64,000 bases of DNA from a virus: UHGV virus genome UHGV-0168042. One strand, written 5' to 3'. The first letter of the stretch is position 1. Each line of letters starts with the position of its first letter. A program made the translations under genes and the position numbers. Positions 2,708 to 55,899 of the stretch are shown piece after piece. The notes below the pieces were generated by a model, which did no database searches, was not told the DNA's origin, and saw only the letters and a program-made list of their open reading frames with translations.

Positions 2708-2720
2708 GTCTCACCATATG

Positions 2721-2750
2721 TGTTAGAAAATACATATTAATTATCTAACA
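2721..2750. promoter_or_regulatory. Operator-like inverted repeat TGTTAGA-N16-TCTAACA, 14-43 bp upstream of rdgC/dmt operon start
   Basis: Sequence TGTTAGAAAATACATATTAATTATCTAACA; perfect 7-bp arms, 16-bp AT-rich spacer; same architecture recurs at 4 other sites. Confidence 0.55.
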
Positions 2751-2766
2751 CAAATGGGTGCATTTT

Positions 2767-4400: not shown

Positions 4401-5168
4401 TCACCCCATAGATATCGAGGTTTCGGTAATAATACGTTTTGCGTCCAACTCCCATGCTGTGATCACGTCTGTAATCACACTTATCGGCGCTTGTGTGGCA
4501 TAAATACGCTCTTCTCCAATTGGTGCTGAAACATCCGTAAAGCCGACTTCTTTGGCATCCTGTATCGAGCAAATCAGCGGGACCGGGACACGAACAAGGT
4601 GAGTGGTTGCTTCAAATTGTGTACCTGTCATCAGGCGAAGCCGTGCGCCCAGCGAATTACACATCAGACTCATGGTCGCTTTATCAGTTGCCATTAACGT
4701 AACGTCATACGTCAGAATGGCCTGGGTGTATTCCAGTTCTGCTAAAGGCATTCCGGTATCTGGTTCGCAAAAACTGGCTACTTTTTTGCGGTCAATCTGC
4801 TGATCATCGTTGATATAATTGATATCCATAGTGCGTGAGATATTGACCAGGGGGAGAGCATCCCGGTTAATGTTCTGGTTTTCAGGTTTTCTCCCTTGCC
4901 CGGCATTTGCGCGACGAACTGCTTTAAGAAACTCGATCGCATTGTCGAAACGGGCCATATAGACACGCTCTGCTGGTGGACGATTCAGGAATGACGCAAA
5001 GCGTTTTTCTTCCGGCGCGGGGGCCACCAGTAAGATATCAGAAAAAATGTTGCTGATTAGCGTCGCAAACGCGTTATCCACGTTTTCAAAGCCCGTGGTC
5101 TGGAATTTTCCTGTGCGTAAGGTTTGCCATTCACCGGTTCGCGCCAGGAGGGTTTTATTTGAAGTCAT
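4401..5168 (-). CDS. Hypothetical phage protein
   Basis: 255-aa ORF in the same minus-strand operon. Confidence 0.35.
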   Translation of the reverse strand: MTSNKTLLARTGEWQTLRTGKFQTTGFENVDNAFATLISNIFSDILLVAPAPEEKRFASFLNRPPAERVYMARFDNAIEFLKAVRRANAGQGRKPENQNINRDALPLVNISRTMDINYINDDQQIDRKKVASFCEPDTGMPLAELEYTQAILTYDVTLMATDKATMSLMCNSLGARLRLMTGTQFEATTHLVRVPVPLICSIQDAKEVGFTDVSAPIGEERIYATQAPISVITDVITAWELDAKRIITETSISMG

Positions 5169-14182: not shown

Positions 14183-14212
14183 ATGTTAGAAAACTAATTT
14201 ATTAATTCAATC
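14183..14212. promoter_or_regulatory. Operator-like motif ATGTTAGAAAACTAATTTA (degenerate full site) overlapping the ref stop codon
   Basis: Near-identical 19-mer recurs in reverse orientation at about 43721-43740 and a 15-mer at about 33307-33323. Confidence 0.4.
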
Positions 14213-14820: not shown

Positions 14821-14850
14821 AGTTAGATATTCAAAATTGATTTTCTAACA
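14821..14850. promoter_or_regulatory. Operator-like inverted repeat GTTAGA-N16-TCTAAC upstream of ref
   Basis: AGTTAGATATTCAAAATTGATTTTCTAACA, about 50-78 bp upstream of the ref ATG. Confidence 0.55.
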
Positions 14851-15044
14851 CAAAACATTAATATCATTCCTGATAACTGTTTGGAGGACATGATGCTTAT
14901 AGCTTTAAGTGCGATCCACCAGCCATCTGTGAATGAGATTGGCCTGTTCTATGTGTTGTTTTTCGGGGCGTTGGCGCTACTTGAACTTGGTATTGAGCTT
15001 TTCGCAGTGCTTATGTTTTGCGTCACGATTTTGGGGAAATTTTG

Positions 15045-20074: not shown

Positions 20075-20104
20075 CGTTAGAACATTGATTTTAGTTTTCT
20101 AACA
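20075..20104. promoter_or_regulatory. Operator-like inverted repeat GTTAGA-N16-TCTAAC upstream of the 20147 operon
   Basis: CGTTAGAACATTGATTTTAGTTTTCTAACA, about 45-70 bp upstream of the ATG at 20147. Confidence 0.55.
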
Positions 20105-20146
20105 TATTATTTTACCGATCGGAACAAAACAGAGTCGGTATGCATT

Positions 20147-31839: not shown

Positions 31840-31912
31840 AGCACCCTCCTAAATAGGCGAGGGTACTTTACAGCAAAGGCGTTAATCTAAAAAGATGTGT
31901 TAGAAATTTAAT

Positions 31913-33306: not shown

Positions 33307-33323
33307 ATGTTAGAAAACTAAAT
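33307..33323 (+). promoter_or_regulatory. Operator-like motif ATGTTAGAAAACTAAAT in the leader of the 33336 gene
   Basis: 15-mer identical to sites near 14183 and 43721. Confidence 0.4.
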
Positions 33324-38163: not shown

Positions 38164-38738
38164 CAGAAAGCCTCCCAGTCAGTCGCGATAATATCCACAC
38201 CAGTTGCAAACCAGTCTGTCTGCGCCTGTAAATCACCATTCATCATTACCAGGCGAGGCATCACCATCACATCGCACCCTTCCACAATATCGAATGCCTC
38301 TTCCGGCAAGAATTCGAAGAGCTTTTCTTTGCTGCCAATGCTGCCACGGAACATCGATATATAGCTCCCTTTAGGCCATGATGTCCGCCGGGCATCAAGC
38401 CCTTTCATCATCCAGTAAAAAGCCGAGGAAAAAGGGATATTCTTTTTGCCAATGATTACATTATTCGCTTCTGTGTACTTCAGGAACTTAACTAACCTTA
38501 CCATTGACTCGGATAACGCAACGTATGGCTCATGATTGATTGCTGACACGCTTACACCGTGCAAATCCACGCTTACCACTGTCATATCACCGCTCTGTGC
38601 GGTTTCGATATTGACGCCTTTGCGAACTAATGAGGCGTAAAGTTCCTCTCGCTTTTTGGTCCAGCGTTCCCGCTTCCCTATGAAGTCACTCAAAATGAGA
38701 TCTTCTTCTGCATATGCGTTATCGTTCGCCATTAACAT
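38163..38738 (-). CDS. Hypothetical protein
   Basis: 191-aa ORF overlapping the downstream gene by 1 nt. Confidence 0.4.
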   Translation of the reverse strand: MLMANDNAYAEEDLILSDFIGKRERWTKKREELYASLVRKGVNIETAQSGDMTVVSVDLHGVSVSAINHEPYVALSESMVRLVKFLKYTEANNVIIGKKNIPFSSAFYWMMKGLDARRTSWPKGSYISMFRGSIGSKEKLFEFLPEEAFDIVEGCDVMVMPRLVMMNGDLQAQTDWFATGVDIIATDWEAF

Positions 38739-39113
38739 AACGTCTCCTTTTTTACACGCGCGACTATCCCCCGGAAGTACCGGTAGTGATGTCGTAACTT
38801 CGTATTAATTAAGGGGTACAGCCTGAGCGGCTATATGATGAATTGAAAGGAGTTGTGGCGGTGGTGCCTCCACCTGCCAGGTTAGCCACTCCTGGCGACG
38901 TCACTTATCAGAACGTAGTGAATGAAAATGGCTTCGTCACGAGCGCATAGCCGCAATTACCACAACGGAAACGGCGCTCACGCTAATTAAACGCCTTTTC
39001 CTGTTGTGCGCCGTGCTCTTCCGGCTGTCACACCGAATCGCCAGGATGGTGAATCCGCAGTCCGACGCTATGAACGGGGCTTGCACATTCCGGCTACCTG
39101 GTGTGCCCATGCA

Positions 39114-39137
39114 GTGTTAGTAAAAGGTACCTAACAG
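39114..39137. promoter_or_regulatory. Palindrome GTGTTAG-N10-CTAACAG (operator variant with shorter spacer)
   Basis: GTGTTAGTAAAAGGTACCTAACAG between tRNA-Ile and the 38163-38738 operon. Confidence 0.35.
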
Positions 39138-39190
39138 CTACACCAGACCGCTAACGACGCATGTGCCATACGCCGTGTTACAACCAAATG

Positions 39191-39266
39191 TGGTGGCCCC
39201 TACCGGACTTGAACCGGTGACCGTGCGATTATGAGTCGCCCGCTCTAACCACTGAGCTAAAGGGCC
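39191..39266 (-). tRNA. tRNA with CAU anticodon, most similar to tRNA-Ile2 (lysidine-modified, AUA-reading)
   Basis: GGCCCTTTAGCTCAGTGGTTAGAGCGGGCGACTCATAATCGCACGGTCACCGGTTCAAGTCCGGTAGGGGCCACCA; cloverleaf folds; anticodon stem-loop identical to E. coli ileX as recalled. Confidence 0.8.
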
Positions 39267-39420
39267 AGATTACTGTTAATTACGCTTACGCTTTTTGCCA
39301 GAACCGCGTAAGGCTTTTGCCGCTTGCTCTACCCCGTATGCAACCACCAGCAGAAATAAAAATGTCCACCAAGGGTTCTTGTCGGCAAACGTCCAAAATT
39401 CCATCATGTTCTCTATTTGG

Positions 39421-40248
39421 TTATTTCACCGGAACAAACGGAACAGCGGTATTACTGGTCATATACTGCGGTAGCGTTCCGTTCCATTTGTTGATCGCTT
39501 CCAACTCCATAACGCCGGGGTTCTGGCGCAGAGCCTCACCGCGTAAACGAATGGCATCAGCTTCAGCCTGGGCTTTTGTGCGAATGGCATCGGCCTGTCC
39601 GGCAGCTTCTGCGCGCAGCATGTTGGCTTCTGCTTCGCGTTGCTTGACTTCCTGCTCGCGTTGCAGAGTTTTCTGGTTCGCCGTGACTTTGGCATTAATG
39701 CTGTCGATAACGGTTGGCGGGTACTCCGGCTTGCCCACATATGAGAGGCTCATTACCTGAATACCGATGGGCGTCATTTCTTCCTGGATGTCTTTAAGAG
39801 CTGCATCCAGTAGTTCAGACTTGCCACCGTCGATAAATTTGTCGGTGGTCATTTTGCTGGCCAGTCGGTTAAGTGCGTCGGCAATCTTCTGGCGCAGGTC
39901 GGTGTCGGTAATGTCATCCACGCCTTTGCGGTAGGTCTGAAATACAGTTGTGACTTTTGCCGGATCAACCTTGTAAGCTACACCAATGTGGTAACCAATT
40001 GTTGTCCCGTCGCTCATTTGGAAGCTGAACGGATCATCATAGGTCTTCATTTGCTTAAAGGTCGGGAAGATATAAACTTCTGTGTTCCAGCCTGTCCAGT
40101 AGCGACCAACGCCAACTACTTCGCCGACACCTTTATCATCCCCCAGCTTATTTACTTTGATCCCTACATTGCCTGGTTCTACCCGGTCGCATCCGGTCAG
40201 ACATAAAGAACCAAAAATAATCGCTGCACTAATCAACGTTTTTTTCAT
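39421..40248 (-). CDS. SPFH/band-7 domain lipoprotein
   Basis: 275 aa; lipobox LTGC after signal peptide; Ala/Glu/Gln-rich C-terminal region typical of SPFH proteins. Confidence 0.6.
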   Translation of the reverse strand: MKKTLISAAIIFGSLCLTGCDRVEPGNVGIKVNKLGDDKGVGEVVGVGRYWTGWNTEVYIFPTFKQMKTYDDPFSFQMSDGTTIGYHIGVAYKVDPAKVTTVFQTYRKGVDDITDTDLRQKIADALNRLASKMTTDKFIDGGKSELLDAALKDIQEEMTPIGIQVMSLSYVGKPEYPPTVIDSINAKVTANQKTLQREQEVKQREAEANMLRAEAAGQADAIRTKAQAEADAIRLRGEALRQNPGVMELEAINKWNGTLPQYMTSNTAVPFVPVK

Positions 40249-40465
40249 TAATCAATTTCCTGGTTTTTTCACGAAAAAAGACTACTGCAAAAGCCGGGTA
40301 AATGAGCGCGAGAAGGACTCCCAACAATACAAGTATTGTGCTGTCAGATGAGATCATATTTGGCAAAAGCCAAACATACAGAACCAGTGACACAATCAAA
40401 CAGAGGACGACATAAATATATAACCGCACCCATAGCGTTCGACATTTGTTCGGATTGTTCTGCAT
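40229..40465 (-). CDS. Small integral membrane protein (possible SPFH partner)
   Basis: 78 aa; two hydrophobic helices; overlaps start of the SPFH gene. Confidence 0.45.
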   Translation of the reverse strand: MQNNPNKCRTLWVRLYIYVVLCLIVSLVLYVWLLPNMISSDSTILVLLGVLLALIYPAFAVVFFREKTRKLINEKNVD

Positions 40466-40783
40466 CCTCTCACTCCATTATTTAACGAATAAAAAAGCTG
40501 CGGTGCCTGGTGCCTCCAGGTGACGTTAACCAGTTAACAATTAACGCCGGGATGTTTGACTTAACCACTAAGGAGGATTGTTTTAACTGTTCCGCGTGCG
40601 CAATGGGACGGTTTTCAAGACTGCTTGAGCACCATGCTCCCTACTCTCCCGTTATTGTGGCGACCGGTGCTGATCTCCGGCTTGCGGTTATTTCAGACTC
40701 TCACGGGCGTTTAATTGCCCCGCCGAACAGCTCTTTTCCGCAATAGCTGCAATGTCTTTCGCGCATCAGCCTGCGCATTCACC

Positions 40784-40875
40784 ACAATGTTGAGAACACT
40801 GGTTGTCACGCTGCAACGCAACATTTATTCATAGATTGGGATATGACCCCGTTACGCCAGTGTTCTCAACGTTGT
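40784..40875. repeat. Near-perfect 19-bp inverted repeat flanking a 54-bp segment
   Basis: ACAATGTTGAGAACACTGG ... CCAGTGTTCTCAACGTTGT (18/19); intervening segment contains TTGTCA and TAGATT promoter-like hexamers. Confidence 0.4.
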
Positions 40876-41022
40876 AGTGCCGGTTACGGTTCCGGCCAGG
40901 CCTCTTCCTCAACGGGGTGTTCTCCATACGGACTACCGTTTATTGGTCGTTCCTGCGGTTTATGTTGTGAAGCCAGATGCTTATCTTCTGGTTGCTTCAA
41001 AGAGCTGCACTTCATCACAACG

Positions 41023-41096
41023 GTAAGGGTACTTCGTAGGGATTCGAACCCTCTGCCAAGCACGGCGATCTCCGACGTCGCAAAATACCCTTACCT
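41023..41096 (-). other. tRNA-like fragment (T-arm GGTTCGAATCC plus acceptor-like stem); probable tRNA remnant
   Basis: Contains GAGGGTTCGAATCCCTA and terminal GGTAAGG/CCTTACC pairing but cannot be folded into a canonical cloverleaf. Confidence 0.3.
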
Positions 41097-41103
41097 GTTG
41101 TGT

Positions 41104-41179
41104 TGGTGCCGGTTAACGGACTCGAACCGCTGACATCCTGCTTACAAGGCAGGCGCTCTACCAACTGAGCTAAACCGGC
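41104..41179 (-). tRNA. tRNA-Thr (anticodon UGU)
   Basis: GCCGGTTTAGCTCAGTTGGTAGAGCGCCTGCCTTGTAAGCAGGATGTCAGCGGTTCGAGTCCGTTAACCGGCACCA; canonical stems. Confidence 0.8.
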
Positions 41180-41181
41180 AT

Positions 41182-41258
41182 TGGCGATGGTGGGTGGATT
41201 CGAACCACCGACCGACAGCTTAGAAGGCTGCTGCTCTATCCTACTGAGCTACACCATC
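41182..41258 (-). tRNA. tRNA-Arg (anticodon UCU, AGA/AGG-reading)
   Basis: GATGGTGTAGCTCAGTAGGATAGAGCAGCAGCCTTCTAAGCTGTCGGTCGGTGGTTCGAATCCACCCACCATCGCCA; 2 nt from tRNA-Thr. Confidence 0.8.
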
Positions 41259-41710
41259 ACTTGCCGGGTACGTCTCCGGCGAGGGCTTCCACCTCCGTAT
41301 GCTTTTCGGCGCACCGCGCCCTGGCTGCAATTCGGTAACAGGGGATGCACAACCCTGGCTTCCAGCGTGATTAGCGCCTTCAGCATGACGGGATATACCC
41401 GTAGTAGGATGTTATCCCAGAAAGCCATTAATCAATGGCTGTTACGCGGGAGGGACGTAACAGGTAAGGGCGCTGACCAGAAAGACCTGACCCTTCTCAT
41501 TCATCTGGTTAATCACACCAGCGCCCTTGCCTGTTATGCCTCCCCGTTCCCTAATACACAGACGGGGACACTCTGCGGTCGATTTTTTGACGGGGGACGA
41601 CTCATACCCCGTGGCGTCTGGCTTCTTAGGCCGCTACCATCATCAGATCATCGTTTGCATTTACTTTAATGGTCAGTTTATAAACCGCCGCAAAGTCGCT
41701 AACCATGACG

Positions 41711-41742
41711 AAAACCCTAAAAAAGCCCACCCGAAGATGGGC
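41711..41742 (-). terminator. Rho-independent terminator on minus strand
   Basis: Minus strand: GCCCATCTTCGGGTGGGC followed by TTTTTTAGGGTTTT. Confidence 0.5.
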
Positions 41743-41761
41743 AAATACGCTACATCTCACA

Positions 41762-41840
41762 CAAGAAAGAAGCCGACTGCCTGAGCTGGATTCACTTTCA
41801 AATGCCCGCTGAAAGGGATCACAAGTCGGCTTCTTTCTTG
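41762..41840. repeat. Perfect 16-bp inverted repeat (long stem-loop) with about 45-nt loop
   Basis: AAGAAAGAAGCCGACT ... AGTCGGCTTCTTTCTT; lies just upstream (minus strand) of the terminator in an ORF-poor region. Confidence 0.4.
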
Positions 41841-42463
41841 ATGCGGCACTCTCTCCGCCCGTCACCGCTCTGTCTCGGTTGTCGCGTTTGCCACGCCAGC
41901 CGTAACGAGGTTTAAAGTCTTTGCACGTTTCCATCACTCGACTGCCGTCTGTGGCTGTTCGTTGCAGCGGGGGTGCCTCCCCCTGGGGATATCCCCGGCC
42001 TTACCCCATTCTTTCAAGACACAATGCAAGGCCACATCCGCATAGGTGCATTACCGCAACATTAAGGAGACTCAGGGCAAAAGGTAACCGCCACAAAAAT
42101 CCCTATGCCTCCTTAATGTTGAAGATGTGCATTGATGATTAGATGCAGCATGTACCGTTACTCTCTGCCGGACCATCATCAATAAACACCTTAAAAAGGC
42201 CTTCCGTGGCTCAACATGTATTGTCGTTTACTCCGCAAAGTGCTCTCTCTGAAACCACTTTCCGCACTAAACCTGCTGAACTTTGGCCTGCACGGTGCCA
42301 AAGCGTGCTCTTGCGTTACTATACTTTTCTAACACTTTAATTTGTTAAATGCTGGTGGGCGAACAATAACCAATAAGTGACTATCAAGCCCAGCAAGCGA
42401 AACGTGGGTACCGCCCACCAGCAAGGAAAATTCTATGTTAAGTTACCTTCACAATCAATACAT

Positions 42464-42491
42464 TCGAATTGTGATTTTAGATTTCTAACAC
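42464..42491. promoter_or_regulatory. Operator-like site ATTCGA-N16-TCTAAC (left half degenerate)
   Basis: Spacer ATTGTGATTTTAGATT resembles the spacer of the 20075 site; a second half-site TTTTCTAACAC lies at about 42325-42335. Confidence 0.35.
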
Positions 42492-42492
42492 A

Positions 42493-43701
42493 TTATTTCC
42501 CGTAAAGATCTTCTACACCCCCATTATTCTTATCCCATTCGTTCGCCCATACCCGGCAAGCGTCAATGATTTCCTGACGACGATCTCCTTGCATGAACGG
42601 AATGCTTTCATGGAAACAGCTTGGAATGCAGGCCACACTGAATACAGTATCAAACTCCGTCTGCTTGATTGCCTCCAGCGTCTCCGGACGCATTTTTAAT
42701 TCATCGATTGGCGCATCCTTAGAGTCCATAATCCGGCGATATAAGCACGGAAAATCCGTCTCCAGGTACGCCATAATTTTATCTGCGAGACATTCGTCTA
42801 TGTCGGTATTCCAGTCCTTTTCGAAGCCCGGCAGGCGATAGTAAAGCGGCGTTCCCCATACCGATGGGATCACATCCATCGTTAACAGGCGATTGGTTCT
42901 GATTTGTTGATGGTAATTAGCCGTCAGCAGTGCTTCGCCACGCTGCCCAGTTTCCGCAACCAGGCCGTGCGGATACTCATGGATGTAGGCAATGGCATCC
43001 CTTCCGTCATACATAAGTGGAAATGTCTCTGGTCTTTGTCCCATGCCACAAGCACGGTTCAGATCGTGACCAAGCTGTGAGCACTCTCGCTTTAATGTTT
43101 CGATAATGCTCTGCGCTGTAGCCAACTTTTTACGCAGTGTGACGCCTTCGCCTTGATAATCAATGCATTGCTGATTGAGCTTGGTTAAACGCTCTTTTAG
43201 TTCCCGGCGCTCTCTTTTCAGCGTGCGGTTATCCTTCTCCGCAACATCCAGCCGCTTTGTCAGGCTGGGCGGATAGTCTTTTTTGTAACGGTTCAAATCG
43301 GCTTCGGCAGATTTACGCAGTGTATTTGCCTGTTCAAGACGCGCTTCCAGATTGCCGATCTCATTACGCATATTCGCGGCAAATTGATTAACTGCATCAC
43401 CCAGGCTTTCAACTGTCGCTGATACGCCTGTGACTTGTGAAAAACGGATCAAGCCATCATTAACGGCTTGTTGGTATTCCTCAAACTGATCCACCAGCTT
43501 ATTGTAATCAACTGCCCCATCATCAAGCAGCTTGTTGATTTCCGCCACCAGGTTATCTGTAGTGGCAATGACACTCTCGTGCAGTCGCTTTGACAGGTCA
43601 TCACCCGGATTCCGTTTCTGTATAAGAGCGATTTGTGTGCGCAGCGTTTCAATTGCTGTCGAGATAATTTCCAGATTAGAAGTATCAGTGTGTTGACTCA
43701 T
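42493..43701 (-). CDS. Hypothetical protein with N-terminal coiled coil
   Basis: 402-aa ORF; operator-like 19-mer about 20-38 nt upstream of the ATG. Confidence 0.5.
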   Translation of the reverse strand: MSQHTDTSNLEIISTAIETLRTQIALIQKRNPGDDLSKRLHESVIATTDNLVAEINKLLDDGAVDYNKLVDQFEEYQQAVNDGLIRFSQVTGVSATVESLGDAVNQFAANMRNEIGNLEARLEQANTLRKSAEADLNRYKKDYPPSLTKRLDVAEKDNRTLKRERRELKERLTKLNQQCIDYQGEGVTLRKKLATAQSIIETLKRECSQLGHDLNRACGMGQRPETFPLMYDGRDAIAYIHEYPHGLVAETGQRGEALLTANYHQQIRTNRLLTMDVIPSVWGTPLYYRLPGFEKDWNTDIDECLADKIMAYLETDFPCLYRRIMDSKDAPIDELKMRPETLEAIKQTEFDTVFSVACIPSCFHESIPFMQGDRRQEIIDACRVWANEWDKNNGGVEDLYGK

Positions 43702-43720
43702 TGCTGTTCCCGTTACTTTG

Positions 43721-43740
43721 TTAAATTAGTTTTCTAACAT
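43721..43740 (-). promoter_or_regulatory. Operator-like motif ATGTTAGAAAACTAATTTAA (minus orientation) upstream of 42493-43701
   Basis: 19/20 identical to the site at 14183-14202. Confidence 0.45.
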
Positions 43741-43814
43741 ATTTTATTAGTTTGATGACGGTATCGGAAGATGCAATAAACAAAAAACCCGCTAATTGGC
43801 GGGTTTTTATGCAA

Positions 43815-44129
43815 TTACTGTGTTGCAGCCTGATAAATAAGATACGCGATAAATACAGGTACGATGGCCCATTGCAGCAATGAAAGTAGCCTCATTACTG
43901 TTATTGGGGTAACTCCATCCACGTATTGTTTCTCTGACATTTTCCCTAACCAACTAACCGACAACAGTGCCGAGTTTTCACCCAATTCCAGCTCTCTGAG
44001 AGCTTCACGGATTAACGGCGCTGTCACAGCCTTAACCGGTGTGCTCAACGTGATACTCCGCGTCCTCCCCGCATCGTCAGCGAACGCCAGACTCACATAA
44101 TATTTTTTGCTCAATGTACAAACTCCCAA
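43815..44129 (-). CDS. Hypothetical small membrane protein (start uncertain)
   Basis: Track ORF 104 aa; C-terminal hydrophobic helix LLSLLQWAIVPVFIAYLIY. Confidence 0.3.
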   Translation of the reverse strand: MGVCTLSKKYYVSLAFADDAGRTRSITLSTPVKAVTAPLIREALRELELGENSALLSVSWLGKMSEKQYVDGVTPITVMRLLSLLQWAIVPVFIAYLIYQAATQ

Positions 44130-44325: not shown

Positions 44326-44820
44326 TTAATCAAGACAAACATACTCCGTGATAGCTTTTATGGCTTCAGCGGCACTGCGCGCCTCAAAGCAGTAGTAACC
44401 GGCTTCAGTGAGGCGAGTCATCCAGACGAGTTGTTCGGGAGTCAGGCGATTTCTCCCATGTTTCATCTCAATGCGCATTCCGTGGTATCCCCCACAAGCA
44501 AGGTCTATAGAAAGATCGGGATATCCCTTCTTTTGGCCCTCTGCCACCATTTTTATTGCCGTCCTTATGCCTCGCAGGCCACCGTTTGGAGTGGCGTGAG
44601 TATGCTCATACACATAACGCATATTGCGATACAACCAGTCCAGGACGCGAACCTGCTCGTAATGCTCATGGTTCCTTTTGATTAGATCTGGGTTTTTCTC
44701 CAGTTCTCTAAGAGCTGCGGCATGTGGGGATGTTTCAGAATATTCACTGCGACGCCTTCTCTTTCGCGCTATTTTTCTAACACACCCATTGATACTGAAT
44801 ATGCGAAATAATAACAACAA
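44326..44820 (-). CDS. VRR-NUC domain nuclease-like protein (start uncertain)
   Basis: C-terminal YPDLSIDLACGGYHGMRIEMKHGRNRLTPEQLVWMTRL resembles VRR-NUC (PD-(D/E)xK); track start is TTG and an operator half-site TTTTCTAACAC lies inside the first 15 codons. Confidence 0.5.
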   Translation of the reverse strand: MLLLFRIFSINGCVRKIARKRRRRSEYSETSPHAAALRELEKNPDLIKRNHEHYEQVRVLDWLYRNMRYVYEHTHATPNGGLRGIRTAIKMVAEGQKKGYPDLSIDLACGGYHGMRIEMKHGRNRLTPEQLVWMTRLTEAGYYCFEARSAAEAIKAITEYVCLD

Positions 44821-54653: not shown

Positions 54654-54681
54654 TTTAGAAACAGCAAATTAATTTTCTAAC
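54654..54681. promoter_or_regulatory. Operator-like inverted repeat TTTAGA-N16-TCTAAC upstream of icd/rha copy 2
   Basis: TTTAGAAACAGCAAATTAATTTTCTAAC, about 330 bp upstream of the icd-like ATG. Confidence 0.5.
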
Positions 54682-54736
54682 ACAAATCATCGAGCGAGCA
54701 TTTTCCGATCATTGGGATGCTTTGTAGACACACAGG

Positions 54737-55796: not shown

Positions 55797-55899
55797 CAGT
55801 CGCTACCGGAGCAGTGACCGCGATCCTACTCGATCCCATCCACCAGGATCAACAGTGTATATAAATACACTATGTTAGAAATTTAACTTAACAAGGCGA

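Follow-up and report, generated by a model that had tools for sequence, protein, structure and literature searches.

An unannotated phage RNA with a predicted arm antisense to host tmRNA in the ORF-free tRNA-operon leader of a D6-like phage-plasmid

We find that a stretch without open reading frames in a D6-like phage-plasmid encodes, on the evidence of comparative sequence analysis, an RNA of about 180 nt (41717-41541, minus strand) that belongs to a large and unannotated family of enterobacterial phage RNAs. The RNA begins with an arm that appears to be antisense to host tmRNA and continues into a linker, a tag-like frame of ten codons and two predicted pseudoknots. The best explanation, which we advance tentatively, is that the RNA pairs with host tmRNA and thereby either blocks the tag template of the host or, as seems likelier, substitutes for it.

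The window (the whole 64-kb stretch of DNA that was analysed) is a D6-like phage-plasmid of the P1 family, 97.5% identical to phage D6. Within it, the segment of interest is by homology the untranslated front of a minus-strand lytic transcription unit and corresponds to the leader of the C1-controlled ban/tRNA operon of P1. The segment is a composite of separate modules and not one long non-coding RNA: read along the minus strand, operator and promoter boxes are followed by a hairpin leader, a terminator, the ~180-nt RNA, a long hairpin, a 3′ domain of the P1 family, and tRNAs (Table 1). A preliminary description of the segment had proposed a long structured non-coding RNA or a decayed gene; the segment is indeed non-coding and structured, but it is not a single long RNA, and a decayed gene finds no support. 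That description had highlighted a 17-bp stem and the terminator, which are peripheral, and the tmRNA-related RNA directly downstream of the terminator went unnoticed.

Table 1 Features of the segment and of the adjoining tRNA genes, listed in minus-strand order.
Feature	Position	Strand	Remarks
Operator-like box 1	42471-42498	minus	Core GTGTTAGAAAT at 42491-42481; directly 3′ of the pmgS-like stop codon
Sigma-70-like promoter TTGATT-17-TAGAAT	42430-42458	minus	Predicted; consensus scan
Operator-like box 2, GTGTTAGAAAA (42335-42325)	42315-42348	minus	Overlaps TTAACA (42348-42343) / TATAGT (42323-42318)
D6-group hairpin-rich leader	41746-42310	minus	~570 nt; z = -4.85
Intrinsic terminator GCCCAUC-UUCG-GGUGGGC + U6	41719-41742	minus	Stem-loop 41742-41725
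5′ arm, 48 nt	41670-41717	minus	Predicted antisense to host tmRNA nt 56-107
Linker, 11 nt, UUAAAGUAAAU	41659-41669	minus	Resume codon preceded by U(-5) and A(-4)
Tag-like frame GCA AAC GAT GAT CTG ATG ATG GTA GCG GCC TAA	41626-41658	minus	ANDDLMMVAA*
Two-part helix around frame end and stop codon	41612-41639	minus	Outer 41639-41636/41615-41612; inner 41632-41630/41622-41620
Pseudoknot PK2 (predicted)	41578-41611	minus	S1 41611-41607/41595-41591; S2 41601-41598/41581-41578
Pseudoknot PK3 (predicted)	41541-41577	minus	S2 41577-41572/41562-41557; S1 41568-41563/41546-41541
M hairpin, 27-nt arms	41449-41545	minus	Inverted repeat; 3′ side of the ~180-nt RNA
P1-family 3′ domain	41259-41448	minus	~91% identical to P1; up to the first tRNA
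tRNA-Arg(UCU), tRNA-Thr(UGU)	41104-41258	minus	41258-41182 and 41179-41104; ARAGORN, Rfam; downstream members of the unit

The earlier statement that the segment contains no convincing ORF was borne out. The largest mechanical ORFs comprise 162 aa (plus strand, antisense to the tRNAs) and 103 aa (minus strand), none of the mechanical ORFs of the segment has a Pfam match, and the four that were checked (103 aa and 59 aa on the minus strand, 65 aa and 73 aa on the plus strand) each carry an interruption or a frameshift in close relatives; the 103-aa frame meets a stop at codon 85 already in phage D6. Among the 30 plasmid records listed, of 119 matching, none carries a CDS annotation under the D6-specific part. 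A protein-coding reading was rejected for want of a Pfam match and of conservation in the checked ORFs. That the segment is instead a pseudogene is scarcely credible: mechanical ORFs of 59-162 aa are present, and hypothetical proteins are annotated here in a few database records, but the frames that could be checked are broken, and substitutions in the helices are compensatory and follow no codon pattern. The comparative alignment that had been proposed as a check likewise revealed helices kept by compensatory or G-U changes on the minus strand, with no codon-like conservation.

Description of the segment as highly structured was also justified. On the minus strand, none of 100 shuffles was as stable as the native sequence either for 41746-42310 (MFE z = -4.85) or for 41259-41745 (MFE z = -4.02). 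To call it GC-rich was an overstatement, in that its GC content of 50.4% lies slightly above the window mean of 47.9% (sd 2.8) and ranks 58th among 314 windows of equal size. The hairpin-rich leader of the D6 group is present in 119 plasmids (84-99.5% identity) and, by sequence comparison, absent from P1. Both of its large hairpins show compensatory changes, with one position of the 17-bp stem occurring as G-C, A-U, and C-G; this stem, a perfect inverted repeat (41762-41778 / 41824-41840), had been reported as a perfect one of 16 bp. The further palindromes mentioned alongside it all lie in the segment, namely an inverted repeat CAACATTAAGGAG...CTCCTTAATGTTG at 42121-42057 (minus strand) and the short G/C palindromes GGGGATATCCCC and GGGGGAGGCACCCCC at 41997-41971. 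The terminator is canonical, as had been claimed, with a 7-bp stem, a UUCG loop and T6; it is kept in all D6-like and P1 loci and occupies the same place in a lambdoid-type contig (L040). A hairpin followed by a terminator resembles the 3′ end of an sRNA, DicF is produced by processing plus termination (PMC5069750), and part of the homologous P1 leader is labeled "dicF-like region" in the P1 record, all of which would fit a division-inhibitor sRNA of the DicF type. We regard such an sRNA as highly improbable, however, as no Rfam match to DicF appears at E <= 10 and the ~100-nt "dicF-like" module of P1 is absent from both the window and D6, leaving the terminator as the only shared part.

At the upstream end of the segment, the operator-like site noted previously proved to be real. 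The window contains 19 copies of the motif RTGTTAGAAAW where 4.6 are expected (0 of 100 shuffles reach 19), and two of them lie inside the segment, at 42491-42481 and 42335-42325. The C1 box of P1 is absent, and this different, dispersed 11-mer stands in equivalent places: box 1, which forms a direct repeat with box 2 and is kept in 10 D6-like relatives, corresponds to the place that holds the C1 operator Op72 and Pban in the P1 annotation. The predicted sigma-70-like promoter between the two boxes is the sole promoter-like site that a scan of 38500-44000 returned, and its hexamers are kept in relatives. The TTAACA/TATAGT pair previously suggested as a promoter is present, but it was missed by the consensus scan because its 19-nt spacer is too long. 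At the other end of the unit, positions 41100-41745 are ~91% identical to the P1 sequence between the Op72/Pban site and trnA/trnT, and both P1 and D6 have tRNA-Asn(GUU) in the first tRNA position.

To place the ~180-nt RNA in a family we used a covariance model, R1, built from non-P1 phage copies only. Its sole match in the 64 kb is 41545-41717 on the minus strand (91.8 bits, E = 1e-21), and it also matches P1, D6, and every relative tested. Members of the family occur in 732 phage records and, among E. coli genomes, in 670 of 5426 (~12% of complete genomes); they span P1-like, lambdoid, T1-like, FelixO1-like, N4-like, and Vi1-like phages. The 180-nt core is the only unit common to these phage families, the elements that flank it varying from one to another. 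The expression setting is always lytic. Wherever tRNAs are nearby the RNA is co-oriented with them; in lambdoid prophages it lies between the Q antiterminator and the holin gene, in N4-like and Vi1-like phages inside or beside tRNA clusters, and in the T1-like phage Sa179lw it has its own promoter (TTGACA-17-TAGATT), which ends 11 nt before the RNA. In the window a strong terminator lies 2 nt upstream, and expression of the RNA therefore requires read-through or antitermination, which for P1-type phages weighs against the mechanism proposed below. The Rfam scan recommended earlier matched the tRNAs and otherwise gave only sub-threshold matches to tmRNA_permuted and beta_tmRNA (E <= 10), with none to DicF, C4, GOLLD, or ROOL at that threshold, and neither Rfam nor the literature that we searched describes a tmRNA-like or an anti-tmRNA element from such phages.

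The central part of the RNA resembles the tag template of a tmRNA. The frame has neither an AUG start nor a Shine-Dalgarno sequence, and its first in-frame stop falls at codon 11 in 159 of 159 elements, whereas frames 1 and 2 are irregular. The 37 nucleotide versions of the frame encode 22 peptides, with the profile A-N-[DES]-[DENS]-x-[FYMVI]-[LM]-x-[AV]-A. Codons 1, 2, 9, and 10 vary mainly in the third position; the first two vary synonymously only (GCA/GCU and AAC/AAU), and codon 10 is represented by all four Ala codons. These patterns are suggestive of selection at the level of the peptide rather than proof of it, because the third-position changes in codons 9-10 are bound up with pairing in the helix that encloses them. 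Of 84 distinct elements, 71 have a linker of 11 nt, 80 have U(-5), and all have A(-4). In E. coli tmRNA the linker likewise measures 11 nt and the corresponding positions are occupied by U85 and A86, residues to which established work on tmRNA assigns a frame-setting role. A small hairpin upstream of the resume codon (GUUU/AAAC) is invariant and hence yields no covariation signal. The outer stem of the helix around the stop codon covaries by eye across classes (CUGA/UCAG, CUGG/CCAG, UGGC/GCCA, UGCAA/UUGCA), but the formal covariation counts for this helix are weaker, since the MAFFT alignment displaces the classes relative to one another.

Covariation supports the presence of two H-type pseudoknots after the frame. 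The stems of PK2 are 98-100% paired (S1 97.8%, S2 100%), three pairs in each being changed on both sides, and the S2 variants GUCG/CGAC, CCGA/UCGG, CCAG/CUGG, CCAA/UUGG, and CUAG/CUAG all pair. Both stems of PK3 are 100% paired with compensatory changes, and its eight S2 and ten S1 variants all pair. In a plain MAFFT alignment 13 pairs are changed on both sides, a number that none of 500 shuffles reached, and slid-partner controls gave 0-4. Formal pair counts refer to this MAFFT-only alignment (A2), which was used because realignment with a covariance model (A3) mis-placed the 3′ strand of PK3 in the P1 class; the cross-class variants come from a rule-based parse. A closing P2 helix (UUUGCGG with CCGCAGA) was considered and rejected, as it is unsupported in other classes and the same bases covary as stem 2 of PK3.

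The 5′ arm appears to be a diverged reverse-complement copy of the part of host tmRNA that comprises the 3′ half of PK1, the linker, the resume codon, and tag codons 1-6 (nt 56-107). When aligned locally to the reverse complement of E. coli ssrA, arms of the main classes score 38-46, which is ~6-9 sd above shuffled arms (mean 18-19, sd 3), and those of two divergent classes score 32 and 24. The window's own arm scores 38 (z = 6.0; 1 of 200 shuffles reached 39), and alignment to the sense strand of ssrA gives scores of 15-22, that is, no signal. For most classes RNAduplex predicts 36-40 bp between arm and tmRNA at -41 to -49 kcal/mol (z -5 to -9), compared with -18 to -31 kcal/mol between the arm and the element's own tag region. 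In a class of short elements only tmRNA nt 79-107 are complementary, with 22-24 bp predicted at -24 to -30 kcal/mol. Across the sampled Enterobacterales the tmRNA target hardly varies; in Yersinia and Sodalis it has diverged and the predicted pairing is weak. An invariant block of the arm, GUUUUCG, is the complement of the host codons GA[C GAA AAC]. Neither nhmmer nor the phage covariance model matches the phage RNA to E. coli ssrA, and the antisense relation was revealed only by direct local alignment together with duplex folding. PK2/PK3, the M hairpin, the 3′ domain, and the leader have no homology to ssrA in either orientation, and the tag half is weakly similar to the sense strand of E. 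coli ssrA (z = 1.6). The antisense similarity could in part be a relic of an ancestral inverted duplication.

These features would be accounted for by the following mechanism. During lytic growth the ~180-nt RNA would be released from a precursor at processing sites provided by the long hairpins on its flanks and by the tRNAs downstream. By its 5′ arm it would anneal to host tmRNA and mask the resume codon and tag codons 1-6; the predicted duplex ends where host PK1 begins, so that the phage linker and tag template would occupy the host's own position. Host Ala-tmRNA and SmpB would still rescue stalled ribosomes, adding the phage tag ANDDLMMVAA instead of ANDENYALAA, and the net effect would be a tag template swapped in trans. 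That phages of at least six unrelated lineages use such an RNA to hybridize with host tmRNA and supply a replacement template for the C-terminal tag is possible, though we would not call it probable. Predicted phage tags such as ANDDLMMVAA, ANDDVVLMAA, ANEEMYLAVA, and ANDEQFLAVA have neither the SspB-binding NY motif nor the canonical LAA end.

An intermolecular helix of ~38 bp beside the template might, however, hinder loading of the mRNA channel or be cut by RNase III, and either effect would favor plain inhibition. The RNA would then be an antisense inhibitor or sponge that blocks the resume codon and the tag, perhaps with the help of RNase III, so that trans-translation is off or reduced in lytic growth; the frame would go untranslated, and together with the pseudoknots it would contribute to stability, folding, or protein binding. 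This reading draws on the same complementarity evidence as a tag swap, no tRNA-like domain would be needed, and where a promoter is present the arm stands at the extreme 5′ end of the transcript, as is typical of base-pairing RNA seeds. There is also a precedent for either reading, in that trans-translation in cell-free systems is suppressed when synthetic oligonucleotides complementary to tmRNA are supplied (PMC3384345). Left unexplained, however, would be why every element has exactly 10 codons and a stop (159/159), why the peptides have a tmRNA-like profile with synonymous variants, why the linker has 11 nt with U(-5)A(-4), and why the phage tag departs from the host tag at precisely those positions where the RNA would otherwise anneal to itself. 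We judge inhibition alone to be unlikely, though deserving of serious weight.

Little weight, by comparison, is due to the view that the segment is a mostly inert leader or processing scaffold for the tRNA/ban operon, in which the tmRNA-like piece is a decaying, captured fragment of ssrA that hitch-hikes with phage tRNA clusters. The RNA does have tRNAs and relics of tRNA-like elements around it, P1 dispenses with the D6-specific leader, and several modules come and go between relatives. But a relic would not retain compensated pseudoknots, a frame of 10 codons in 159 of 159 elements, and an invariant arm across six lineages, and the RNA is also present in 732 phage records.

We also weighed whether the phage RNA has, or could borrow, a tRNA-like domain. 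ARAGORN detected no tmRNA, one-piece or permuted, in the window or in ~165 related loci. No strand complementary to the 5′ flank of the RNA, as an acceptor stem would demand, lies within 900 nt, and 41259-41745 contains no T-arm with a T-loop, T-loops being found only in flanking modules of some other phages. RF04321, whose gathering score is 47, reaches 25.4 bits in the window (over the tag stretch) and 33-34 in Bp4 and Pylas; beta_tmRNA gives a sub-threshold 15 bits, and RF00023 has no match. A canonical or permuted tmRNA was rejected, ARAGORN being negative and the 7 nt before UUUUCG having no acceptor partner 100-900 nt downstream; these 7 nt are the 3′ strand of the preceding M hairpin.

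The M hairpin is probably a processing or punctuation stem. It shows G-C to G-U changes on the minus strand and 2-3 double changes, and in lambdoid and T1-like settings the RNA is likewise flanked by homologous stems (AAGRGCAYUG...CAGUGCUCUU). We note that the M stem resembles GGGC/GCUC of tRNA-Ala and that some copies carry T-loops. That the hairpin is an alanine-accepting minihelix was considered and judged improbable: its G-U alternates with A-U and is not at 3:70, and its 3′ tail is UUCC, not CCA. A self-sufficient, non-canonical phage tmRNA, two-piece or rearranged, would have to take its tRNA-like domain from a neighbor, for which the candidates are M hairpins (some with GGUUCGAAUCC T-loops), a tRNA-shaped downstream element in lambdoid leaders, or an adjacent tRNA. 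Perfect T-loops and acceptor-like stems do occur in some M hairpins and in that tRNA-shaped element, Bp4 and L049 have a tRNA-like gene <=12 nt after the RNA, and permuted two-piece tmRNAs exist (PMC11915505). Nevertheless, ARAGORN is able to detect permuted forms and was negative throughout, the 5′ flank has no complementary acceptor strand, the G-U of the M stem is misplaced, the window's M hairpin has no T-loop, and the 180-nt core alone is shared while its flanks vary between families, all of which makes self-sufficiency quite improbable. Beyond the M hairpin, the P1-family 3′ domain, which is not common to non-P1 phages, is nearly invariant in 11 diverse P1-family sequences, and covariation is therefore uninformative on its predicted fold; at the site of one of its hairpins, three different sequences occur.

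Nearly all bacteria use trans-translation for quality control, and the pathway is a current target for antibiotics. If our preferred reading, in which the RNA anneals to host tmRNA, is true, P1, a classic model phage, and hundreds of therapeutic-type coliphages, Salmonella phages, and Klebsiella phages carry an overlooked RNA gene directed against this pathway. The RNA would be the first natural anti-tmRNA and possibly the first tag template given in trans to host tmRNA, a new kind of viral control over protein fate and ribosome recycling in which a virus re-programs the quality control of ribosome rescue by a trans-acting split-tmRNA mechanism. It would help to explain the persistent ORF-free gaps in lambdoid late leaders and phage tRNA clusters, as well as phages that depend on the charging of tmRNA but not on tag-directed proteolysis. 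The hypothesis is immediately testable, since it predicts exact peptide tags for which mass spectrometry data can be searched. The minimal result is an RNA family, supported by covariation and missing from Rfam and from genome annotation, that fills an annotation gap.

Among known systems, the leader of the P1 ban operon (NC_005856) has an orthologous position, repressor control (putative in the window), no ORF, and the same tRNA slots after it. It differs in its upstream gene (dmt, as opposed to a pmgS-like gene here), in its operator (a C1 box versus RTGTTAGAAAW), and in its leader, which measures ~150 nt as against the 570-nt D6-specific one and includes the "dicF-like" module missing here; the tmRNA-related RNA is unrecognized in the P1 annotation. 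GOLLD and ROOL are large, phage-associated structured RNAs next to tRNA genes. Like them, the phage RNA is a structured non-coding RNA of phages and prophages that adjoins tRNA genes, but it is much smaller, has an architecture that appears tmRNA-derived and an evident antisense target, and matches neither in Rfam. With tmRNA itself (RF00023) it shares an AUG-less frame of 10 codons starting A-N-D/E and ending A/V-A, U-A at -5/-4, a GCA/GCU resume codon, an 11-nt linker, a stop codon within a helix, and H-type pseudoknots after the frame. Unlike tmRNA, it has no detectable acceptor stem, T-arm, G3-U70, CCA end, or closing P2, only two pseudoknots, and no ARAGORN or above-threshold Rfam match, and its 5′ region is the apparent reverse complement of PK1 to codon 6 rather than a tRNA-like 5′ half. 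Complementarity to tmRNA is shared with the synthetic anti-ssrA oligonucleotides that serve to stop trans-translation in cell-free translation and ribosome display (e.g. PMC3384345), which are artificial, short DNA with no template of their own and for which the literature searched offered no natural counterpart. The coding piece of two-piece tmRNAs (RF04321, RF01849-51), which gives the best Rfam match of the phage RNA (sub-threshold, 25-34 bits), likewise bears a tag, is an incomplete tRNA mimic, and needs an RNA partner. In two-piece tmRNAs that partner is an acceptor piece, transcribed together with the coding piece and attached to it by way of the acceptor stem and P2; for the phage RNA no acceptor piece was found, and its predicted partner is the complete host tmRNA, engaged via an antisense arm over the tag template. 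Finally, mycobacteriophage DS6A is reported to have a CDS-less tmRNA (PMC11915505), likewise a partial tmRNA encoded by a phage; DS6A keeps the tRNA-like half and has no tag frame, whereas the family described here would be its mirror image plus an antisense arm.

The valuable content of the segment is a ~180-nt RNA on the minus strand, which is, by comparison with its relatives, the local representative of a widespread, unannotated phage RNA family that is related to tmRNA and complementary to host tmRNA. The existence and architecture of this family are well supported. A sensitive BLAST search of phage genomes with 41259-41745 matched P1-like phages and gave ~70% matches to 41523-41716 in the N4-like phages Bp4 and Pylas and the Vi1-like phages phiMAM1 and phiEa2809, all in unannotated ORF-free gaps and on the same strand as adjoining tRNA genes. 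When the window's version was compared with related loci by BLAST, the unit common to phage families came to about 190 nt only (41716-41523), and the element turned up in over 150 viral contigs in two pattern scans of IMG/VR. From 18 copies, P1-like phages excluded, we built a covariance model; it has one match in the 64-kb window (41545-41717, minus strand; 91.8 bits, E = 1e-21), matches all relatives tested and has no match in E. coli ssrA, the tmRNA gene. Among 50,697 phage records, 732 contain the family, almost always unannotated; they include Ackermannviridae, Felixounavirus, Schitoviridae, P1-like and lambdoid phages and T1-like siphoviruses of E. coli, Shigella, Salmonella and Klebsiella. 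Of 5426 complete E. coli genomes, 670 carry it, at 583 places on plasmids and 152 on chromosomes, and it is present in 618 plasmids. We note that OR844942.1, filed as Enterococcus phage Efm 3-10, has a 75%-identical copy of this enterobacterial-phage RNA (58463-58602), which points to mislabelling, contamination or a chimeric assembly.

Reading the window side by side with its phage matches revealed a frame, GCA AAC GAU GAU CUG AUG AUG GUA GCG GCC UAA (ANDDLMMVAA*), that is shared with the N4-like and Vi1-like matches and directly preceded by ...UAAAU, with neither an AUG nor a Shine-Dalgarno sequence. The tag of E. coli tmRNA is ANDENYALAA, and as a predicted peptide ANDDLMMVAA has the form of a tmRNA tag. 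P1 and D6 share this predicted tag, and that of the T1-like phage Sa179lw is ANDDVVLMAA. Apart from tRNAs, an Rfam scan gave one signal only, on this stretch: RF04321, the permuted-tmRNA model, matches at 25.4 bits in the window, and Bp4 and Pylas reach 33-34 bits, all below the gathering score of 47. Codon 11 is the first in-frame stop in 159/159 elements, and the remaining two frames are irregular. The 22 peptides encoded by 37 nucleotide versions fit A-N-[DES]-[DENS]-x-[FYMVI]-[LM]-x-[AV]-A; codons 1 and 2 show synonymous changes only (GCA/GCU, AAC/AAU), and four Ala codons are in use at codon 10. By this pattern of substitution the frame behaves like a translated tag, and we regard it as very unlikely that the element is a hitch-hiking relic. 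Of 84 distinct elements, 71 have an 11-nt linker ahead of the resume codon, 80 have U at -5 and all 84 have A at -4; E. coli tmRNA likewise has an 11-nt linker, AAAAAAUAGUC, with U85 and A86 at -5 and -4, the bases that set the frame in tmRNA. In four Vi1-like contigs (L153, L197, L209 and L226) the invariant block is doubled (GGUUUUCGUUUUCGUUG); in the Vi1-like contigs the first two codons are GCU AAU, not GCA AAC, and the tags are ANDSEVLMAA and ANDNTFLAVA.

The proposed structure contains 13 base pairs that are changed on both sides (47 cells) in a plain MAFFT alignment, a number matched by 0 of 500 column shuffles, and sliding the partners by 1-3 columns left only 0-4. Its two pseudoknots, PK2 and PK3, have four stems, of which three are 100% paired and the remaining one 97.8%. 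A rule-based parse of 88 distinct sequences listed GUCG/CGAC, CCGA/UCGG, CCAG/CUGG, CCAA/UUGG and CUAG/CUAG as variants of PK2 stem 2, and eight variants of PK3 stem 2 (for example CGCAG/CUGUG, CAUGG/CCGUG, CGGAG/CUCUG and CGUGGU/ACCAUG). A two-part helix, the outer stem of which covaries too, holds the last part of the frame together with its stop codon. ARAGORN, which recognises permuted tmRNAs as well, made no tmRNA call, either in the window or across about 165 related loci, and no acceptor strand complementary to the bases before the RNA was found downstream; looking upstream, these bases are part of an adjoining hairpin. A hidden, non-canonical tRNA-like partner for the RNA is, in our estimate, unlikely.

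Conservation in the family is strongest in the block GUUUUCG, which together with GCGAC and UUUGCGG makes up a 34-52-nt 5' domain. Over its full length this domain aligns, in reverse complement, with E. coli ssrA nt ~53-107, a stretch that takes in the 3' half of the pseudoknot PK1, the A-rich linker, the resume codon and codons 1-6 (GCAAACGACGAAAACUAC). In antisense local alignment the main classes score 38-46 and two divergent classes (L012, L018) 32 and 24, against a mean of 18-19 (sd 3; maximum 28-34 in 500) for shuffles and only 15-22 for the arm against the ssrA sense strand. For the window's arm z = 6.0, with the observed score met by 1 of 200 shuffles, and the rest of the segment has no likeness to ssrA in either orientation. 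RNAduplex predicts 36-40 bp between arm and host tmRNA in most classes (-41 to -49 kcal/mol; z of -5 to -9) and 22-24 bp with tmRNA nt 79-107 in the short class of elements, whereas pairing of the arm with the element's own tag region reaches only -18 to -31 kcal/mol. Phage and host tags differ at codons 3-6, the bases that the arm would otherwise bind. The tmRNAs of Salmonella and E. coli differ at codons 4-5, which read GAA ACC in Salmonella. The target hardly varies across Escherichia, Citrobacter, Raoultella, Serratia, Erwinia, Providencia and Proteus, genera that match the hosts of the family's phages; in Yersinia and Sodalis it differs, and the predicted pairing falls to -23 to -31 kcal/mol.

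What these comparisons show is a conserved, structured RNA that has no tRNA-like domain, a predicted template for a tmRNA-type tag and an arm complementary to the template region of host tmRNA. From the complementarity we infer that the arm anneals to host tmRNA, and an action of the RNA on trans-translation is a specific proposal that can be tested. We tentatively prefer a reading in which the phage RNA substitutes its own tag template. In such a swap the 5' arm would pair with host tmRNA, the intermolecular helix would stand in for PK1, the phage linker (11 nt, with the same U-A context as the host's) and frame would take the host's position, and the phage tag would be added by host Ala-tmRNA with SmpB. 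We favour it because it is the sole reading that uses all of the conserved features: frame length, peptide-like conservation, resume context, pseudoknots, the missing tRNA-like domain and the avoidance of self-complementarity. The alternative of plain inhibition, in which the arm would block host tmRNA or lay it open to RNase III, is possible but doubtful; in its favour, synthetic anti-tmRNA oligonucleotides suppress trans-translation in vitro (PMC3384345). The proposed mechanism has weak points: a 38-bp helix beside the template may be unfavourable for its loading, a strong terminator lies immediately upstream of the RNA in the window's lineage, the similarity of the tag half to the ssrA sense strand is modest (z = 1.6), and the antisense similarity could be partly historical.

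In every case the RNA is positioned for production during lytic growth, and it has the same orientation as the tRNAs wherever these are nearby. Specifically, in lambdoid prophages it lies in a ~1.1-kb ORF-free gap from the Q antiterminator gene to the holin gene, the late leader; the P1 and D6 copies come after a terminator, within an early lytic operon under repressor control; and in Bp4, phiMAM1 and Pylas it lies within or next to tRNA clusters. The T1-like phage Sa179lw has a predicted promoter of its own for the RNA (TTGACA-17-TAGATT, the -10 hexamer ending 11 nt before it) and, ~470 nt downstream, a hairpin followed by a T-rich tract that looks like a terminator by eye and was not among the scan's calls for that strand. 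In lambdoid and T1-like contexts the RNA is bracketed by long hairpins (M hairpins) with conserved stems, AAGRGCAYUG...CAGUGCUCUU or, in fuller form, CAACAGGUAAGRGCAYUG ... CAGUGCUCUUUCCGUUGUGG, and tips that vary strongly and measure 30-90 nt; perfect T-loops (GGUUCGAAUCC) are found in a few of the tips. A late leader has several copies of the hairpin, and they flank the RNA in L014, L017, L018, L023, L056, L141, L143 and other related loci. We read the M hairpins as stems for processing, perhaps of an RNase III type, or for punctuation, perhaps derived from tRNAs. Separately, lambdoid late leaders carry a tRNA-shaped element 3' of the RNA (about +215 to +345 from the tag start in L199; also in L017, L023, L014, L086 and L141), with an acceptor-like stem UGUGGUG/CACCACA, D-arm-like and T-arm-like hairpins that are canonical in L199, and a 60-130-nt insertion in place of the anticodon arm; ARAGORN made no call on it.

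Nucleotide identity places the window in the P1 family of phage-plasmids, as a D6-like member (97.5% to Escherichia phage D6 across 41100-42600; about 91% to P1, P7, SJ46 and RCS47 across 41100-41745). The homologous place in P1, on the tRNA strand, is the ban operon leader, annotated there as the C1 operator Op72 with the promoters P1ban and P2ban, an ORF-free "dicF-like region", trnA and trnT, then tciABC, trnI and ban. The first tRNA slot holds tRNA-Arg(UCU) in the window and tRNA-Asn(GUU) in P1 and D6, a difference that looks like an anticodon-arm exchange because the 5' acceptor strand is identical; the relative L003 has Arg(UCU), Tyr and Thr tRNAs here, and the content of this slot is fluid. 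Near tRNA regions, sub-threshold Rfam matches to the sRNA family STnc100 (gathering score 47) occur in P1 (locus L002, 3307-3426, minus strand; 33 bits) and Bp4 (locus L011, 292-372; 29 bits).

Positions of features in and around the segment (window coordinates unless P1 is named)
Feature	Position	Strand	Remark
Stop codon of pmgS-like gene	42493	-	segment comes next
Promoter favoured by consensus scan	42458-42430		TTGATT-17-TAGAAT
Hairpin with 13-bp inverted repeats	42057-42121		CAACATTAAGGAG / CTCCTTAATGTTG
Perfect stem	41762-41778 / 41824-41840		17 bp
Mechanical ORF	41626-41937	-	103 aa
"dicF-like" module	P1 (locus L002) 4614-4715		insertion point equivalent to window ~41746-41761
Terminator	41742-41719		7-bp stem, UUCG loop, then U6
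tmRNA-related RNA	41717-41541	-	~180 nt
Counterpart of M hairpin	41545-41449	-	27-nt arms
tRNA-Arg(UCU)	41258-41182	-	downstream of segment
tRNA-Thr	41179-41104	-	after tRNA-Arg(UCU)
Exact RTGTTAGAAAW copies	14183-14193, 14841-14851, 20095-20105, 31897-31907, 33307-33317, 43730-43740, 44773-44783, 54673-54683, 55872-55882		
Inverted RTGTTAGAAAW pair	2720-2751		

Everything in the preliminary description of the segment was found again, apart from small corrections. The palindromes lie where it placed them, the canonical terminator is present (Table), and its perfect stem is present but 17 bp long, not 16. The high degree of structure is borne out by folding against dinucleotide shuffles (z = -4.85 for 41746-42310 and -4.02 for 41259-41745), and the operator-like site belongs to a real dispersed motif, RTGTTAGAAAW (19 copies against 4.6 expected; two in the segment), whose copies probably mark a promoter set under the phage's C1-type repressor. 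The TTAACA/TATAGT pair exists, but its spacer is 19 nt and a consensus scan prefers another pair (Table); GC content is only mildly raised (50.4% vs 47.9%). No mechanical ORF has a Pfam match, four checkable ORFs, the 162-aa ORF not being counted, are broken in close relatives, and the D6-specific part has no annotated CDS in the 30 listed records of 119 related plasmids. We give next to no credence to a pseudogene: of the two interpretations first offered, a long structured non-coding RNA or a decayed gene, the non-coding, structured character stands, and the segment is neither a single long RNA nor a decayed gene. One mechanical ORF of 103 aa spans the 17-bp hairpin and the terminator and finishes in the tag frame (...KVNANDDLMMVAA*); this in-frame overlap appears coincidental, because the ORF has a stop at codon 85 in D6 and is frameshifted elsewhere.

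Alignment with ten relatives and P1 indicated that the segment is a mosaic, in which the upstream ~750 nt (42492-41746) occur in the D6 group only and the terminator and everything downstream of it are common to the window and P1. Compensatory substitution maintains the two large hairpins of the D6-group part: the 17-bp stem has, at one position, G-C, A-U or C-G depending on the plasmid, and the 42121-42057 stem changes from GGG/CCC to GAGU/ACUC. The 39 bp between the inverted repeats of the latter have the window's orientation in seven loci and are exactly reverse-complemented in L010 (plasmid CP058619) and L125, which we take to be a tiny DNA inversion within the hairpin, by template switching or site-specific inversion. 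The ~100-nt module that P1 annotation names "dicF-like" lies between the 17-bp hairpin and the terminator in L003, L004, L006 and L008 and has no copy in the window or D6; its helices also change in a compensatory manner (GCAUGG/CCAUGC to GUAUGG/CCAUAC; GUUGCCA/UGGCAAC to GUGAUCA/UGAUCGC), and it is probably a structured RNA module of its own. That the hairpin and the terminator make up a DicF-type sRNA is highly improbable.

In the full-text literature searched we found no description of the element, its tags or a natural anti-tmRNA RNA, a passing mention in a P1 genome paper, beyond "dicF-like region", being possible. Compared with tmRNA, the phage RNA is missing defining features (acceptor stem, G3-U70, T-arm, P2 and scores above curated thresholds) but has those of an mRNA-like domain, and it resembles the coding piece of a two-piece tmRNA without the acceptor piece. 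The tmRNA database paper (PMC11915505) gives a total of 79 unique bacteriophage tmRNA sequences and sets out standard, intron and permuted forms, none of them like the phage RNA. Mycobacteriophage DS6A has a CDS-less tmRNA that consists of the tRNA-like half only, the mirror image of the RNA described here; inhibition of E. coli tmRNA is reported for it (PMC11915505).
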